Of a DNA stretch of 64,000 nucleotides, positions 8,922-20,053 are shown in pieces. Position 1 is the first letter of the stretch, and the number at the start of each line of letters is the position of its first letter. The notes beneath the pieces are model-generated. The model was not told where the DNA came from. It ran no database searches and worked only from the letters and a program-made list of their open reading frames with translations. Made by a program: the position numbers and the translations under genes. Source of the stretch: a virus. The stretch covers positions 12,274 through 76,273 of the IMG/VR virus record IMGVR_UViG_3300046804_000816; one strand, written 5' to 3'.

Positions 8922-9824
8922 ATGAAAATTCTTGTTTCGTTTTCCGGTGGATTTGATTCCACTTACATTATGTACAAATTGTTGACAGAAACGACACATG
9001 AAATTACGGCTGTATGCTTTTATGGTTATCATAAAGATATTTGTATGAGCGCTCAGCCGTCTTTGAGTAAGATTCAGCCCAATCTCGATATAATAGTGCA
9101 AGAGCTGAAAAAGATCAGAGACTTCACGTTTATCACGAAAGAAATACAACGCGAAGAATTTACTGAAGACAATGCGTTTCTATCGCGCTATATTGTAAAA
9201 GACAAGCTGCATGCAATCGCTAGCGGTCCTTTAGATTATTTTATTTGGTGGGCGATTCCAGGAGTTAATGCTGGATCGTACGATACTCTCGTGCATGGCA
9301 TTTCCTGGGAACAAATGCGCAAGAAATATAAAACGACAGATGGAACTGAAGGAAGTCCGAAGCACGTCGAAGCAGAAAAGAAACTGAAACAATATGCGCC
9401 CACTGCTCGTATGTGGTTTCCATTATTGAATCATGATTTTCATTATCAGTTTAACAGATGGCATATCTTTAAGTACATGCCAGAAAACCTGCAGAGATAT
9501 TGCATTTCTTGTGCGTCGCCAACTGTCAATGAAGAATCAATAAAAGAACCGTGTGGATATTGTTTCAAATGTTTGTGGGATAAGTTCACTAAGAATGTCG
9601 TTGAACACGATGTGATGAACGCGGAACAGCTTGAAGAATATCGCTATAAGAAAGCATTAGAGTATGGTGGCGGAAATGGCATTACAGCCACTATGCGTTA
9701 TTGGATTCCCGTAGAAATGCAAGCCCAAAAATCGTATTATCATGTTGATGGACTTGTTCTCGACACCAAAGAAAAGGTGCAGCAATATATGCAGAACAAG
9801 AACTTCGACTATCTTGTGAAATAG
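8922..9824 (+). CDS. PP-loop ATPase (QueC-like, divergent)
   Basis: ILVSFSGGFDS PP-loop; SC...PCGYCFKC zinc site; last base of stop is +1 of tRNA-Ile. Confidence 0.75.
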   Translation: MKILVSFSGGFDSTYIMYKLLTETTHEITAVCFYGYHKDICMSAQPSLSKIQPNLDIIVQELKKIRDFTFITKEIQREEFTEDNAFLSRYIVKDKLHAIASGPLDYFIWWAIPGVNAGSYDTLVHGISWEQMRKKYKTTDGTEGSPKHVEAEKKLKQYAPTARMWFPLLNHDFHYQFNRWHIFKYMPENLQRYCISCASPTVNEESIKEPCGYCFKCLWDKFTKNVVEHDVMNAEQLEEYRYKKALEYGGGNGITATMRYWIPVEMQAQKSYYHVDGLVLDTKEKVQQYMQNKNFDYLVK

Positions 9825-10391: not shown

Positions 10392-11372
10392 ATGACTAAA
10401 CTAAAGATCACTGGATTGAAAGAATCTTCTACAACAATCGATCCTACAGATAATGGCACATTTGAACATATTGGTGCTAAAGGTGGCACTGAGCAGATGT
10501 ACCAAGGATTGATTCAGCGTTTGCCACCTGAACTTGTCGATAAGTTCAATATCATTTGTTCTCGTGTCCGTGCAGTAGATCCAAACAAAAAGAACATTCT
10601 TTGGTTGCACGACACATGGGACGATCCAGAATCACAACATTTGAAGGATCTGAAAAGCCTTGAGCGATTCGAAAAACTCGTATTCGTATCACACTATCAG
10701 CAGTCCACTTACAATCTTGGGCTTGGAGTGCCCTATTCAAAGGGCATCGTACTACAGAACGCGATCGTCCCTATTGAAGAACACGTCAAACCTAAAGGAA
10801 CGATTAATCTCATTTATCACACGACGCCGCATAGAGGATTAGAAATCCTTGTTCCGGTCGTCGAGTTCTTGGCTAGTCGTGGCGTAGACTTTCATCTAGA
10901 CGTCTATTCTTCGTTCAAGATCTACGGATGGGAACAACGCGACGAGCCGTACAAGGCTCTGTTCGATCGCTGCAATCGTCATCCGAACATTACGTATCAT
11001 GGATATCAGCCAAACTCTGTTGTGCGTGAAGCACTGAAGAAAGCGCACATCTATGCGTATCCTAATATCTGGCCAGAGACGAGCGCAATCTCTGTGATCG
11101 AAGCGATGAGCGCTGGTTGTACGGTAATCTGTCCTAACTTCGCTGCTCTTCCTGAAACGTGCGCCAACTTCGCAGTCATGTATGGCTGGGATGAAAACGC
11201 CAATGTCCACGCAAATCAGTTCGCTGGCATTCTTAAAATGGTCATCGACGGATTCTGGGATGACCATAATCAGGATAGGCTAAGGCTACAGAAAATCTAC
11301 TTCGACAACTTCTATAATTGGGATCTTCGGGCTATTCAATGGCGCGATTTCTTGGGCTCGATTAGTTCTTGA
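10392..11372 (+). CDS. GT-B glycosyltransferase (GT4 family)
   Basis: GGTE, WLHD, P.RGL, ETSAISVIEAMSAG (EX7E) motif. Confidence 0.9.
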   Translation: MTKLKITGLKESSTTIDPTDNGTFEHIGAKGGTEQMYQGLIQRLPPELVDKFNIICSRVRAVDPNKKNILWLHDTWDDPESQHLKDLKSLERFEKLVFVSHYQQSTYNLGLGVPYSKGIVLQNAIVPIEEHVKPKGTINLIYHTTPHRGLEILVPVVEFLASRGVDFHLDVYSSFKIYGWEQRDEPYKALFDRCNRHPNITYHGYQPNSVVREALKKAHIYAYPNIWPETSAISVIEAMSAGCTVICPNFAALPETCANFAVMYGWDENANVHANQFAGILKMVIDGFWDDHNQDRLRLQKIYFDNFYNWDLRAIQWRDFLGSISS

Positions 11373-14955: not shown

Positions 14956-15534
14956 ATGAATACAGCCTTTATCATTGGTAACGGTACGACCCGTAAAGGG
15001 TTTGATCTTTCCAGACTCAAGTCGTATGGAACAATCTATGGATGCAATGCGCTTTATCGTGATTTCCCTGATCACTCTATTCCTGATTTCCTCGTTGCTA
15101 TTGATGACGGTATTATTGCAGAGATAGAAGGAAGCGCATTTCCTTCTAGACGTGTGATCATTCCGCCTATGGATGAGCGATGGGAACCGGCTGAATGTAA
15201 TATTGGTCGTCCTCGTAGCAATGCAGGCATGAATGCAATGCGCGAAGCTATCAAGGCTGGATACGATCAGTTGATCTGTCTTGGCTTTGATTTCATGATC
15301 GAAGACGACAAGCAACTACTGTCGAATATGTACGATGGTACGGAAAACTACGGACCCAGCACTCGTGCGAACGCAGCTGATAACCCTGGTCGCCTGAACT
15401 ATATGCAATGGCTTGTATCTAAGAATCCAGAAGTGGACTTCATTTATATTTTTCCTAGCGACTTGACAATTAGCAAGATTCATGGTAAAAATGTATATTA
15501 CAACTCTTACGAAAACCTTCTGAAGCATACATAG
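14956..15534 (+). CDS. CstII/MAF-like (sialyltransferase-fold) protein
   Basis: FIIGNG...GCNA.YR...LVAID...SNAG..A......ICLGFD pattern. Confidence 0.55.
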   Translation: MNTAFIIGNGTTRKGFDLSRLKSYGTIYGCNALYRDFPDHSIPDFLVAIDDGIIAEIEGSAFPSRRVIIPPMDERWEPAECNIGRPRSNAGMNAMREAIKAGYDQLICLGFDFMIEDDKQLLSNMYDGTENYGPSTRANAADNPGRLNYMQWLVSKNPEVDFIYIFPSDLTISKIHGKNVYYNSYENLLKHT

Positions 15535-15560: not shown

Positions 15561-16946
15561 ATGGTCAAGAAAATCTTTTTAGAAAAGTCTTATCGCGATC
15601 AGATGGATCATGTTCTGGGTAAGTTCCTGGATCATGATTGCTATGATCTTGTGCTTACTGAAGACACTGATGTTTATGAGCCATTGACGCCACTACAGAT
15701 TATGATGGGCGAAACACATAGCGAGAAGAACATTCTGTGCAAGTTCCGTAAGAATGTGTTTCCTAAAGAGATGACCGATAAGGCTTATACTGCGCTTCGT
15801 TCCGGCGCGCTGATGTCAGACAATCGTGGTCTTGCTGCAGGCATCGAGCGCGATACTGAGTTTCAGAAACTGCCAGACGGTCAGGGGCAGCGTCGTTGGG
15901 TTACGCAACGCGAGAAAGCTGTTCTTCAGTATATCATGGATGGCAGTCCTAAGTCGATTGCTGGTGAAGATCGGCTGCTGGAAATCTACGAGACTACATC
16001 TAACAAACCTTTGCAAGGACGTGGCTCTGGTGCTAACAAGTCTCTCGCAGAAATTGGTGCTGGTGCTATCTGGATCGTGCATAAGACGACTGAGTTCAAG
16101 TTCGACGACTGGTTCTTTTCCATCAAAGATCTTTCTCCCGAAGAACGTAGAGACAAAGCGCAGTATGTTCTCGATGAACTGATTTCTGCTTCAACGTATG
16201 CTAATGGCGTTCGTTCAGGCGTCGGTGGCTTCATGGATCGCTATCCGCGTATTCCATTCTGTCGTGAGACTGGCTGGAGTGCGAATCACAAAGAACTGTA
16301 TGAAGACGCGCTTCCGCTGTTCCATGCTGCTGCGAATGTTTACAAGAACGAGCTTCCCGTAAGATACATGGGTCAGATGGAAGCTATGGAGCGTCTTGGT
16401 CCTGATTGGCAGATTGGTCATACGCCTTACACAACGCTCACTATCAATCGCGACTTCCGCACAGCAGCGCATCGCGACGTTGGTGATCTCTGCGAGTCCT
16501 GGGAAACGCATGAGAATCCGCGTGGATTTAGCAATTTGCTCGTACTAGATAATGGAAAGAACTACAACGGATTTTATCTGTGCTTCCCTGAGTTCCGCGT
16601 TGCAGCAGATATTCGTGCTGGCGATTTGATTATGATGAACGCGCATCGTATTCATAGCAATAGTCCTGCATTTGATTATGAAGAAGGCTTTGAGCGTATG
16701 TCGGTCGTGATGTACTTCCGCGAGTCCATGCTTAATTGTGGCTCTAAGAAGTACGAAGAAACGAGAAAGCGTTTTGTTTATTCTCGTCGCGATAATAAAG
16801 ATCATCCTCTCTGGCATACAGGTTGGAATGGTGTCTCACCAAATATGTGGGAAACTGAAGAATGGGCTAACTTCTTGGGTAACAGCGGATTCCCAGAGGA
16901 AGCAAATGAAATCCTACATAATCTTGGTCTAGAGCCAGCGCACTAA
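15561..16946 (+). CDS. TET/JBP-family 5-methylpyrimidine dioxygenase
   Basis: NRGLAAG, GFMDRYPRIPFCRET, TTLTINRDFRTAAHRD (HxD), LCFPEFRVAADIRAGD..MMNAHRIHSN (distal H), ERMSVVMYFRE (2OG-binding R). Confidence 0.9.
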   Translation: MVKKIFLEKSYRDQMDHVLGKFLDHDCYDLVLTEDTDVYEPLTPLQIMMGETHSEKNILCKFRKNVFPKEMTDKAYTALRSGALMSDNRGLAAGIERDTEFQKLPDGQGQRRWVTQREKAVLQYIMDGSPKSIAGEDRLLEIYETTSNKPLQGRGSGANKSLAEIGAGAIWIVHKTTEFKFDDWFFSIKDLSPEERRDKAQYVLDELISASTYANGVRSGVGGFMDRYPRIPFCRETGWSANHKELYEDALPLFHAAANVYKNELPVRYMGQMEAMERLGPDWQIGHTPYTTLTINRDFRTAAHRDVGDLCESWETHENPRGFSNLLVLDNGKNYNGFYLCFPEFRVAADIRAGDLIMMNAHRIHSNSPAFDYEEGFERMSVVMYFRESMLNCGSKKYEETRKRFVYSRRDNKDHPLWHTGWNGVSPNMWETEEWANFLGNSGFPEEANEILHNLGLEPAH

Positions 16947-16959
16947 CAAAGGATTTGTA

Positions 16960-18519
16960 ATGTATTGTGTGATTCCAGCTGCGGGTCGTGGTGTTCGTTT
17001 CCATGAGCTCGGAAAGCACTACCCCAAATGTGTTCTTCCGTTTCAAGATGTACCAATTATCGTTCACAACATTAGACTGGCTCTCGATTCGGGAGCCAGA
17101 GAAGTATGTATCGTAGTCGGACATCAAGGAAACAAGATTCGCGAAATCGTTGGGATGTACTTTCCTGAAGATCCACGAATTGTGTTTGAAGAATACAGAA
17201 CAGCCGCAGATAGAGAAGGACCTGGCGTCTCGATCTACTGCGGCATCCCTTCAGATATCAAAGAAGAACCTGTTCTCGTTCTTCTCAGCGATATCGTCAT
17301 TACTTCTCCCACGCTAAATTCATACAGAACGTCCTGGATTAGCACGCAGAAAGTTGCTGATTGGGAACGTTGGTGTATGGCTGAAATAAAAGAAGACGAA
17401 ATCGTTGCATTTCATGATAAGCCAAGAGATATGCCACCAACAGATCGTGCTGTCAGTGGCGTTTACTATTTCCAGAACGGTGAGTTCTTTAGACATTGCT
17501 TGATTGATGCAATTCATGGTACGCGCGAAGGAGAAGTACAAATATCTTCTGCGATGTCGCGTTACATGAAGCAAGAAAAGATTCACAGCAAGAATCTTGA
17601 TATCATTGACTTTGGCACGCTGGAAGAATATCTTCAGAACAGAAGCGTTCCCAATTCGCGCAGTTTCAATAGTCTCTTTCCCTCCAGCGACGGCACGACT
17701 ATCACGAAGACTTCTGTCGTTCATCCAGACAAGATTCATGCAGAAGCGAACTGGTACGATAATCTACCGACTCCCATCAAAGTGATGACGCCACGCATCT
17801 TCGACAAGAAGTTGTATGGCGATCGTCCGACTTACACGATGGAGCGCGTCGATAGTCCTACGTTGCGCGAGCTTTATCTGTATCTCGAATCTGATCCTAT
17901 CTTCTGGGCTGAGATCTTTACGAAACTGTTTGATCTTACCGACAAGTTCAAATTCTATTTCAAGCCAGGCAAGCCACAGTTCTTCAAGAAGATTGCTGAG
18001 AAAACCCATCAGCGATGCTTGCTGATTGAGAAAGATAGTCCTAGATGCCAGGACGTTGACTTTATAGAAAAGTTCACGAAGATGGCTGAAGACGGCGAGT
18101 TTGATATATTCCCCGATTCGCTGTTTCACGGCGATCTGTGCTTCTCGAATGTGTTCTTTCATCCAGGCAGCAAACAGATCAAGCTGATCGACCCGCGCGG
18201 TGATGCGTACGGTAACATTCTGTATGATTTGGCTAAGATTACACATTCAGCCTATTATCCATACGACTATGTGGACGCGGAGCTTTATCTAAATAAGAAT
18301 GGCGAGACGTTGTACTTTGATAGTGGTAAAGAAATTGTTCGCCAAGCATACAAGAAACTATTCGTAGCCAAATATGGCGAATCTGCTTGGCGCATTAATT
18401 TGTTCTTGACAGCGTCTCTATTTTTGAGTATGATACCACTTCACTCACACAACAAGGTGAATCAAGAGTTATTCTATGCCCTCTATCGTAAGGCGGCCGC
18501 AGACAGCGGAATTGTTTGA
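16960..18519 (+). CDS. Sugar-phosphate nucleotidyltransferase fused to APH/choline-kinase-like kinase
   Basis: IPAAGRGVRF....PKC N-domain; FHGDLCFSNV, LIDPRG, YDLAK, LFLSMIPLH kinase domain. Confidence 0.9.
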   Translation: MYCVIPAAGRGVRFHELGKHYPKCVLPFQDVPIIVHNIRLALDSGAREVCIVVGHQGNKIREIVGMYFPEDPRIVFEEYRTAADREGPGVSIYCGIPSDIKEEPVLVLLSDIVITSPTLNSYRTSWISTQKVADWERWCMAEIKEDEIVAFHDKPRDMPPTDRAVSGVYYFQNGEFFRHCLIDAIHGTREGEVQISSAMSRYMKQEKIHSKNLDIIDFGTLEEYLQNRSVPNSRSFNSLFPSSDGTTITKTSVVHPDKIHAEANWYDNLPTPIKVMTPRIFDKKLYGDRPTYTMERVDSPTLRELYLYLESDPIFWAEIFTKLFDLTDKFKFYFKPGKPQFFKKIAEKTHQRCLLIEKDSPRCQDVDFIEKFTKMAEDGEFDIFPDSLFHGDLCFSNVFFHPGSKQIKLIDPRGDAYGNILYDLAKITHSAYYPYDYVDAELYLNKNGETLYFDSGKEIVRQAYKKLFVAKYGESAWRINLFLTASLFLSMIPLHSHNKVNQELFYALYRKAAADSGIV

Positions 18520-18868
18520 AAACAGCCTTGTGGTCGATCTAGATCACACACTATGCGTTGGCGATCTTAACATACACAGTTCAGTCGACCGATACGCCAG
18601 CGCAGAACCAATCACAGAAACAATCGAGAAATTGCGTGAAGCGCATAGTAAAGGCTGGTACATTACCATTCTTACTGCGCGCCATATGCGCACAACGAAC
18701 AACGACGTTGAGTATGCGTTCAACAAGCTAGGCAAAATCACTGAAGACTGGCTTGATAGACACAACGTTCCGTTCGATCAACTTGTGTTTGGTAAGCCAT
18801 ATGGTATGTGGTATATCGACGATAAAGCAATGACATTGGATACATTTGTAAATGACTTCGAGCCCTAA
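18476..18868 (+). CDS. HAD phosphatase (EcbF/BcbF capsule-biosynthesis type)
   Basis: VVDLDHTLC, TAR.M, FGKP...YIDDK. Confidence 0.85.
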   Translation: MPSIVRRPQTAELFENSLVVDLDHTLCVGDLNIHSSVDRYASAEPITETIEKLREAHSKGWYITILTARHMRTTNNDVEYAFNKLGKITEDWLDRHNVPFDQLVFGKPYGMWYIDDKAMTLDTFVNDFEP

Positions 18869-19682
18869 GATTATAATCACTACGTTCATGCGCGAAGACA
18901 AGCAGAAAGCTGTCTTCCAGATTCCTGCGTCGTTGCACGAGCACGTCTATATGTTCACGCGAGTAGATCGCGTCGATGAGCTGCGTAAGTATGTTCCTGA
19001 AACGATTCGCATCATCGGCAATCCTATGGATATCGACGGCATCGCAGATATTCGTCAGCGTTGCATCGAGCAAGTTCCGAAGGGAAAGGTGTGGGTCATC
19101 GACGATCTCTGCACCTTTGGATGGCGCGACGATAATCTAAAACAGTACAACGATATGGACAAGCAGAAATGGCTAAGTCTGTATAACAAGATGAACGATA
19201 TGCTCGACGAGTATATGCAGGTAGGTATCTCAGCTCGCGGCGGCAACAATCATGTGACAGATCCCTTCAAGGAAGTCGGTCGTGCATACACCACGTATGG
19301 ATTGCGCACAGACTGGATGGAGCGCGAAGGTATTCGTTTCGACGGTATGTATCAGCAGAATCCGAACGTAAAGCTCTACGAAGATTACTGGATCACGCTC
19401 TCGATGCTGACTAAGGGATTCAAGAACGCGATCATCTACAACTTCTTCTTCAATTATGTTCACAACAACACTGGAGGTAATTCAACATTCAGAACGCTAG
19501 AACTACAAGAACAAGCAGCGTATGAATTGCAAAAGCATTTCCCTCAGTTCGTTACAGTAGAAACTAAAGAAGGAACATGGGGAAAGATGGGTATGGAGAA
19601 TCGTAAAGAAGTTCGCATACAGTGGCAGAAAGCATATCAAAGCTCACAGTTCACTAACAATCTCGAATCGTTCTTCTCGTAA
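18852..19682 (+). CDS. TET/J-associated GT-A glycosyltransferase (TAGT/GREB1-like)
   Basis: IADIRQ..., WVIDD, EDY...L.ML.KGF.N, GGNS.FRT, EVRIQWQKAY. Confidence 0.8.
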   Translation: MTSSPKIIITTFMREDKQKAVFQIPASLHEHVYMFTRVDRVDELRKYVPETIRIIGNPMDIDGIADIRQRCIEQVPKGKVWVIDDLCTFGWRDDNLKQYNDMDKQKWLSLYNKMNDMLDEYMQVGISARGGNNHVTDPFKEVGRAYTTYGLRTDWMEREGIRFDGMYQQNPNVKLYEDYWITLSMLTKGFKNAIIYNFFFNYVHNNTGGNSTFRTLELQEQAAYELQKHFPQFVTVETKEGTWGKMGMENRKEVRIQWQKAYQSSQFTNNLESFFS

Positions 19683-19693
19683 AGGAAACAAGA

Positions 19694-20053
19694 ATGTCTT
19701 CAATGGATTTCATCGTCGGAGTACTCGTCTCGGCTGCATCGTGGATGATTGGTATCGCGCTCGCACGATACGTGATGCGTAAATATCTTGGATGGGGCGA
19801 CACAGCTACGGAAATCAGTTCTACGCATACAGACGACATCGTCGACTTCGACAAAAGCGAGCGCCCGTACATTCCTATTCGTATTGTTAAAGAACATGGA
19901 CAGTACTATGCGTGGTTCGCGCTGAATGATTCGTTCATCGGTCAGGCTGATAAGTTATATGAGCTGCGCCAAATGGCCCACGACAATATACTAAAACAGA
20001 TCGGGCTTAGACTTGAGTTTGACATCGATTTGAAGCAAAAGAAAAAGCCTTGA
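19694..20053 (+). CDS. Membrane-anchored hypothetical protein
   Basis: N-terminal TM, FIGQ motif. Confidence 0.7.
   Translation: MSSMDFIVGVLVSAASWMIGIALARYVMRKYLGWGDTATEISSTHTDDIVDFDKSERPYIPIRIVKEHGQYYAWFALNDSFIGQADKLYELRQMAHDNILKQIGLRLEFDIDLKQKKKP

Follow-up and report, generated by a model that had tools for sequence, protein, structure and literature searches.

A TET/JBP dioxygenase gene cluster of a T4-like phage with a predicted role in post-replicative DNA glycosylation

Which base of the viral DNA would be modified, and with which sugar, by the products of four genes that cluster around a TET/JBP dioxygenase gene in a T4-like aquatic (freshwater) phage? The cluster lies in a 64,000-nt stretch (the window), which covers bases 12274-76273 of the 76,273-bp IMG/VR record IMGVR_UViG_3300046804_000816 (CheckV completeness 46%). 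With moderate confidence, it is read here as a post-replicative DNA glycosylation module, in which the dioxygenase would oxidise a pyrimidine, likely thymine, the phage would make its own activated sugar and a TAGT-family glycosyltransferase (GT) would attach it. Four adjacent, partly overlapping genes had been described in an earlier note, and this layout was confirmed. All are on the + strand: a TET/JBP-family 5-methylpyrimidine dioxygenase (15561-16946; 461 amino acids, aa), a fusion of a nucleotidyltransferase and an APH-fold kinase with AfhE-like architecture (NTK; 16960-18519; 519 aa), a small capless HAD phosphatase of the EcbF-BcbF/AfhF type (18476-18868; 130 aa) and the TAGT, a glycosyltransferase of GT-A fold (18852-19682; 276 aa). 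The open reading frames (ORFs) of NTK and HAD overlap by 44 nt and those of HAD and TAGT by 17 nt.

The first ORF was recognized by the Pfam model Tet_JBP (PF12851) with 56.2 bits against a cut-off of 34.9 (E = 3e-15). The HRD...H...R motif noticed earlier could be placed at H304-R305-D306, H365 and R379. Together with R235, these residues are invariant in an alignment of 26 TET homologues, and both the iron triad HxD...H and the arginines that bind 2-oxoglutarate (2OG) are intact. The AlphaFold (AF2) model, with a predicted local distance difference test score (pLDDT) of 87.7, displayed a TET-type double-stranded beta-helix. Its best solved matches in Foldseek were CcTet (3e-11), human TET2, NgTET1 and CMD1, with E values from 3e-11 to 5e-7; a sequence search of the PDB gave no match. 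The catalytic core spans approximately aa 205-405 and is preceded by an N-terminal extension of about 200 aa. An exhaustive search returned 1155 TET homologues, most of them phage enzymes of about 300 aa whose match was confined to aa 205-405; the extension is common to about 25 protein clusters. Fusions of TET to TAGT (1123 aa; the single protein P0116), to an amino acid:DNA transferase (AADT; 1281 aa) and to P-loop nucleotide kinase 3 (658 aa) were found among the homologues. Tandem proteins with two TET domains also occur, the fusion and tandem proteins being P0116, P0114, P0096, P0012 and P0026. Reading the specificity for T or 5-methylcytosine (5mC) from the third residue after the HxD aspartate (D309) was dropped, as no such rule is established (PMC8256090).

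The second gene encodes an RmlA/GalU-like sugar-1-phosphate nucleotidyltransferase (aa 1-226) joined to an APH-fold kinase (approximately aa 236-510), as evidenced by Pfam matches to NTP_transferase/NTP_transf_3 at aa 3-226 and, weakly, to APH. The G-x-G-x-R signature is invariant, the kinase residues H390-G-D...N397...D411 are present and the catalytic signatures of both domains are intact, so that the fusion proposed in the earlier note stands. In a profile comparison with the PDB, the nucleotidyltransferase domain matched RmlA/GalU at 3e-16, and it looks specific for pyrimidine nucleotides. NTK has 514 homologues, and its identity to the RB69-type NTK of phage JK45 is 23% (pairwise E = 2e-12), with the HGDxxFSN and IDPRG motifs shared. 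A scan of bacterial genomes with the NTK profile gave 11 loci only. The full-length matches were on contigs of metagenome-assembled genomes or single cells and may be viral, and the kinase-only matches were in envelope-glycan loci, which gave no hint of the sugar. In the Protein Atlas, the kinase domain matched generic APH clusters only.

HAD motifs I-IV are present in the third protein as DLDHT (DxDxT), ILTAR, GKP and IDDK (DD). Its assignment to the EcbF type was upheld by the best-matching model, TIGR01689 EcbF-BcbF (3e-19), by PDB 1xpj (7e-16) and by these motifs, though the 69 bits obtained lie below the curated cut-off of 162. PDB 1xpj has also been reported as a match of the AfhF-like protein of phage DLP3 (PMC13326640). 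Identity was 28% to the AfhF-like protein of JK45 and 44% to an unannotated ORF of Stenotrophomonas phage DLP6. Its predicted reaction is the dephosphorylation of a sugar bisphosphate at the non-anomeric position. The logic of kinase, phosphatase and nucleotidyltransferase that had been put forward holds, and so does its tie to the arabinosylating T-even phages, NTK and HAD being distant homologues of the RB69-type AfhE/AfhF pair.

The TAGT ORF scored 28.5 bits with Pfam PF20691, a marginal value for a cut-off of 27.5; the same model was matched by 14 of 15 TAGT orthologues, the best at 8e-11. The AF2 model (pLDDT 85.7) has a GT-A fold, and the acidic metal-binding I83-D84-D85 is invariant, in good agreement with the TAGT-like glycosyltransferase named earlier. 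Foldseek matched the model to the GT-A enzymes TarP, TarS, RmlT and SpsA, and no match was found by sequence in the PDB. The predicted reaction is the transfer of a sugar to the 5-hydroxymethyl group.

The order up192-TET-NTK-HAD-TAGT-dn119, which includes two conserved flanking genes, is kept in close relatives whose TETs are 70-100% identical. In more distant contigs the arrangement is TET-TAGT-HAD-NTK or TAGT-HAD-NTK-TET, which makes three orders overall in IMG/VR, the four genes recurring in about 35 viral contigs. Two cultured phages have the module as well. Phage DLP6 has it as TAGT-HAD-NTK-TET, and Synechococcus phage S-CBWM1 as TET-TAGT-HAD-NT-kinase, with nucleotidyltransferase and kinase as separate genes. 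At the DLP6 locus (L001:3907-5938; KU682439.2) the HAD gene is unannotated, and AAY80_029, named a ModA ADP-ribosyltransferase in the DLP6 paper, is the locus tag of the 563-aa NTK homologue. A panel of 18 restriction enzymes is also reported for DLP6, which counts neither for nor against a modification of its DNA. Synteny of the set across many independent contigs shows that the cluster is not a product of chance.

Its link to DNA was evaluated in the 35 viral records with NTK homologues, where a TET was found in 15, a ThyA-family gene in 14 and both in none. In the records that lack a TET, the HAD-NTK pair is preceded, no more than a few kb away, by a divergent ThyA-like gene. Such loci (L035:4412-10424 of Enterococcus phage 9183, L051-L059, L071, L072, L075, L078, L080 and L082) presumably represent a pre-replicative glycosyl-pyrimidine pathway, and no isomerase was found anywhere in those records. 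In the RB69-type phage JK45, an isomerase-NTK-HAD series adjoins the ThyA-like gene, with NTK directly followed by HAD as in the window. The NTK-HAD pair alternates between TET and ThyA-like partners, and the sugar module is therefore attached to either route to a hydroxylated pyrimidine. On this comparative evidence, a single functional unit of four genes, predicted to act on DNA, is well supported.

A different sugar supply was observed in six close relatives (TETs 77-79% identical), where an NAD-dependent epimerase/dehydratase and one or two divergent TAGTs take the place of NTK-HAD-TAGT between the same flanking genes (as at L012:11407-13899, L015:11407-13123 and L025:7818-10313). In a quick TET tree the epimerase-cassette phages were placed within a supported clade together with two NTK-type phages, which implies at least one cassette swap. 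From these gene arrangements, TET is judged to be the constant part and the sugar supply the variable part, exchanged among close relatives. In phage C48C1 (OQ984149.1; L032:6908-10355), genes for an unknown protein of 344 aa and for a UDP-galactopyranose mutase (GLF, 5.6e-52) come after the orthologous TET, which suggests a DNA modification based on galactofuranose. Caulobacter phage Cr30 (L002:5959-12432) has an orthologous TET near an amino acid:DNA transferase (PF18724, 1e-52); its locus also holds a dATP/dGTP diphosphohydrolase-like gene, a weak TAGT and an annotated inositol-1-phosphate synthase.

In order to assign the base, C5-methyltransferases (PF00145) were searched for. None was detected in the window's record, which is 46% complete, in 26 fragment records carrying this TET, be it with the NTK-type module or with the sister epimerase cassette, or in the complete genomes of DLP6, Cr30, C48C1 and S-CBWM1, all of which have full-length orthologous TETs. 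ParB was not found either. A connection with thymidine hypermodification is given by the related TETs fused to an amino acid:DNA transferase or to a P-loop kinase of the type associated with 5-hydroxymethyluracil (5hmU), and by Cr30, where the orthologous TET is coupled to such a transferase. Phage 5-methylpyrimidine dioxygenases (5mYOX) without a neighbouring methyltransferase have been assigned as T-dioxygenases, enzymes that can also oxidise 5mC (PMC13229309). With no C5-methyltransferase in the four complete genomes named above, thymine is favoured as the probable target.

The following pathway can be proposed. In phage DNA, the TET/JBP enzyme would hydroxylate a pyrimidine at its 5-methyl group, most likely converting T to 5hmU. 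By analogy with AfhE/AfhF, the kinase domain of NTK would phosphorylate the anomeric carbon of a host-supplied sugar phosphate, HAD would remove the other phosphate and the nucleotidyltransferase domain would yield a UDP- or dTDP-sugar. In the last step, TAGT would glycosylate the hydroxymethyl group, and the product would be a base-J-like nucleobase with a sugar that the host pool does not supply ready-made. Protection of the phage DNA from host nucleases is the likely purpose. A SIS-type arabinose-5-phosphate isomerase was absent from the 35 NTK-bearing records (five of them complete) and from the 8 other genomes and records checked, among them the window's record, G001-G005 and DLP6, and a GmhA-type isomerase (SIS_2) was absent from the five records searched (the window's record, G001, G002, DLP6 and S-CBWM1). 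As no phage-encoded isomerase was found in the records searched, the precursor must come from the host.

Several points weigh against this pathway. The modified base is a prediction from gene content; the likeness to AfhE/AfhF is weak (23% identity for NTK and 28% for HAD); among the records searched, there is no phage-encoded isomerase pointing to a precursor; and no sequence rule separates T- from 5mC-dioxygenases (PMC8256090). In addition, a C5-methyltransferase gene is present in both G001 and G002, the most complete of the close relatives (78% and 90%), at a distance of 65-100 kb from the module; the 20 kb around it have no counterpart in the window's partial record, and the enzyme is 43% identical to the TET-adjacent one of Methylophilales phage Melnitz. 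Such a distant methyltransferase could make 5mC, which TET would convert to 5-hydroxymethylcytosine (5hmC) for glycosylation by TAGT. This cytosine route is considered unlikely. In its favour, both relatives are collinear with the window, have TETs 76-79% identical and hold one PF00145 gene each (E of about 1e-53), that of G002 being in the gp47-gp46-deformylase hotspot where DLP6 has its TET module; the Melnitz homologue stands directly beside a TET, characterised phage TET-GT pathways act on 5mC (PMC8256090) and phage T-dioxygenases accept it too (PMC13229309). However, DLP6 has the identical four-gene module but no C5-methyltransferase, nor is there one in S-CBWM1, Cr30 or C48C1. Moreover, proven 5mC pathways have the methyltransferase next to TET, which is never the case here, the Synechococcus phages that hold the closest cultured homologues of the enzyme (49%) gave no TET match, and identity to the Melnitz TET over the core is no more than 26%. 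At the G002 locus (L030:7471-12769, that is G002:47471-52769), gp47, gp46, peptide deformylase and the C5-methyltransferase are followed by a second S-adenosylmethionine-dependent methyltransferase. The choice left by the earlier note, thymine or a methyltransferase encoded elsewhere, is thereby narrowed: the latter does occur in G001 and G002, and thymine is favoured by the four complete genomes without one.

The sugar allows further alternatives, and neither the arabinofuranosyl nor the heptosyl group suggested at the outset was supported, as isomerases of the SIS and GmhA types were missing from the records searched and the published heptose pathway is built differently. D-arabinofuranose, which would be derived from arabinose-5-phosphate of the host in just the way known for AfhE/AfhF, is a rather doubtful candidate. 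Gram-negative hosts make arabinose-5-phosphate for the synthesis of 3-deoxy-D-manno-octulosonate (Kdo), which counts for this sugar, as do the matching architecture, an NT-kinase fusion followed by a small HAD, and the shared kinase motifs. AfhE/AfhF are also a characterised pair (PMC13326640). Yet RB69/DLP3-type phages (PMC13326640) and JK45 have an isomerase of their own, whereas a SIS isomerase was lacking in the 35 NTK-bearing records and the other genomes checked, including DLP6 and G002, and identity to the AfhE type is only 23%. Members of the same NTK subfamily are also found in phages of Enterococcus, a host from which arabinose-5-phosphate would not be expected, and this would argue against a strict specificity of the whole subfamily for that precursor. 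Synthesis of a heptose from heptose-7-phosphate of the host, on the model of the contig-53 pathway, is quite improbable, even though heptosyl-5hmC was obtained in E. coli with HAD, APH kinase and nucleotidyltransferase, the three activities also predicted here (10.1101/2023.12.21.572611), and the HAD family resembles GmhB-type phosphatases (PMC13326640 Table 1). Contig 53 is organised differently: HAD and APH are fused, the cytidylyltransferase is a separate protein and the glycosyltransferase is a GT-B enzyme; in addition, no GmhA (SIS_2) was detected in the five records searched, and the nucleotidyltransferase domain of the window is RmlA/GalU-like and not of the cytidylyl or adenylyl type. 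Finally, NTK, HAD and the glycosyltransferase might have a target other than DNA, for instance a virion protein or the host envelope, their position next to TET being incidental. We give this very little credence: the nearest solved folds of the glycosyltransferase are indeed teichoic-acid glycosyltransferases, and cellular homologues of the kinase domain occur in envelope-glycan loci, but proven DNA glycosyltransferases have the same structural neighbours (10.1101/2023.12.21.572611), the TET linkage is kept through three gene orders, a TET-TAGT fusion exists and the NTK-HAD pair partners exclusively TET or ThyA-like genes.

The proposed post-replicative glycosylation of DNA by the four-gene module leads to a wider and more tentative proposal, for which we see somewhat less than an even chance. 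T4-like phages, including DLP6 and S-CBWM1, may carry a natural analogue of base J, a 5-(glycosyloxymethyl)uracil formed on finished DNA with a self-activated pentofuranose or other non-glucose sugar, and cassette exchange would change the glycan. If true, and going by the cited literature, a glycosylated 5hmU would be reported for the first time in a virus, and a TAGT would have a new donor sugar. The exchange of cassettes between phages that are nearly identical suggests that the DNA glycan itself is under selection, a point of relevance to defence systems that recognise modified DNA. Both base and sugar are testable in the two cultured phages that carry the module, and the new DNA glycosyltransferases and enzymes for nucleoside diphosphate sugars (NDP-sugars) would be useful reagents for labelling 5hmU or 5hmC.

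The surroundings of the cluster are those of a T4-type genome, with RNase H, a MazG-like pyrophosphatase, a deoxynucleoside monophosphate kinase, a gp32-like single-stranded DNA-binding protein and baseplate wedge proteins encoded in the window. Metagenome runs with the cluster sequence came from freshwater, estuary, riverine and marine samples in 10 studies, the stretch being represented there only by assembled contigs of older runs, and a near-identity nucleotide search of the cluster against cultured phages gave no match. Directly upstream of TET lies up192 (14956-15534, +), a conserved 192-aa gene that was seen in 26 of 26 close loci and holds the same place in every close relative. It had no match in Pfam, the PDB or the named clusters of the Protein Atlas, which gave unnamed viral clusters only, and it was not present in the DLP6-type or L060-type modules. 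It marks the left boundary of the unit and is, as regards the pathway, a candidate neighbour only. The right edge of the swappable sugar cassette is marked by dn119 (19694-20053, +), a conserved 119-aa gene that relatives keep downstream of either cassette, NTK-HAD-TAGT or epimerase-TAGT. A scan for promoters and terminators inside the cluster performed no better than on shuffled sequence. A GT-B glycosyltransferase (Glycos_transf_1, phrog_2170; 10392-11372, +) is encoded 4 kb upstream of the cluster and is kept in all lineage members, whichever sugar cassette is present; it could add a further sugar to the DNA or serve another target. Also upstream, a 2OG-Fe(II) oxygenase (PF13640; 8325-8918, +) adjoins a PP-loop-like ATPase (8922-9824, +).

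Every enzyme type of the module has already been described, and the novelty first ascribed to the cluster was overrated. Pathways of 5mYOX and GT-A enzymes with APH, HAD and epimerase neighbours have been surveyed, most of them inferred to make 5hmU (10.1101/2023.12.21.572611; PMC13229309), and a glycosylated 5hmU product has been reported for no phage in the cited phage 5mYOX literature (PMC8256090; 10.1101/2023.12.21.572611; PMC13229309). What appears new, as judged from gene content, is a recurrent four-gene module that joins a long-form TET to an AfhE/AfhF-like pair, occurs both in T4-like phages and in cultured ones, was never found together with a ThyA-like route and has a sugar cassette that close relatives swap. 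The T-dioxygenases of phages were defined only in 2025-26, and the module would connect this class to an AfhE/AfhF-like sugar-activation pair known only from the pre-replicative arabinosylation of cytosine.

Compared with the known phage 5mYOX and GT pathways (PMC8256090; 10.1101/2023.12.21.572611; PMC13229309), the window shares a post-replicative dioxygenase beside a GT-A enzyme. It differs from them in the size of TET, 461 aa with the long N-terminal extension against about 300 aa in typical phage 5mYOX, in its T4-like genome and in the tie of TET to a fused NT-kinase and an EcbF-type HAD. The ParB-independent T-dioxygenases (clade C2, PMC13229309) resemble it in having neither a neighbouring C5-methyltransferase nor ParB, a distal methyltransferase being present in G001 and G002. 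In contrast to the 5mC pathway of C5-methyltransferase and TET (clades A/B, PMC8256090), no TET-adjacent C5-methyltransferase was found in the record or in the 26 fragments. The AfhE/AfhF pair of phage HY126 converts arabinose-5-phosphate to UDP-arabinofuranose for DNA, according to PMC13326640, which cites He et al., Nat Chem Biol 2026. The same source gives the pairs RB69 gp52:53/gp51 and DLP3 gp82/gp81, along with that of HY126, as makers of UDP-D-arabinofuranose for arabinosyl-5-hydroxycytosine (PMC13326640). These systems have in common with the window a fusion of nucleotidyltransferase and APH kinase followed by a small HAD, the HGDxxFSN and IDPRG motifs and a pair that feeds a DNA glycosyltransferase; unlike it, they are pre-replicative (ThyA-like hydroxylase) and have GT-B arabinosyltransferases and an arabinose-5-phosphate isomerase. 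In the contig-53 heptosyl-5hmC pathway, HAD, APH kinase and nucleotidyltransferase likewise feed a DNA glycosyltransferase downstream of a 5mYOX (10.1101/2023.12.21.572611). Its HAD-APH fusion, separate cytidylyltransferase, GT-B enzyme and neighbouring C5-methyltransferase contrast with the NT-APH fusion, separate HAD and GT-A enzyme of the window. Base J of kinetoplastids is made by the thymidine hydroxylases JBP1/2 and the glucosyltransferase JGT, which uses host UDP-glucose. The module would resemble it in proceeding by two steps on finished DNA, from T to 5hmU and then by O-glycosylation, with enzymes of the same superfamilies. It differs from base J in its phage setting and in encoding a dedicated NDP-sugar module, and its presumed role is anti-restriction, whereas base J acts in transcription control.

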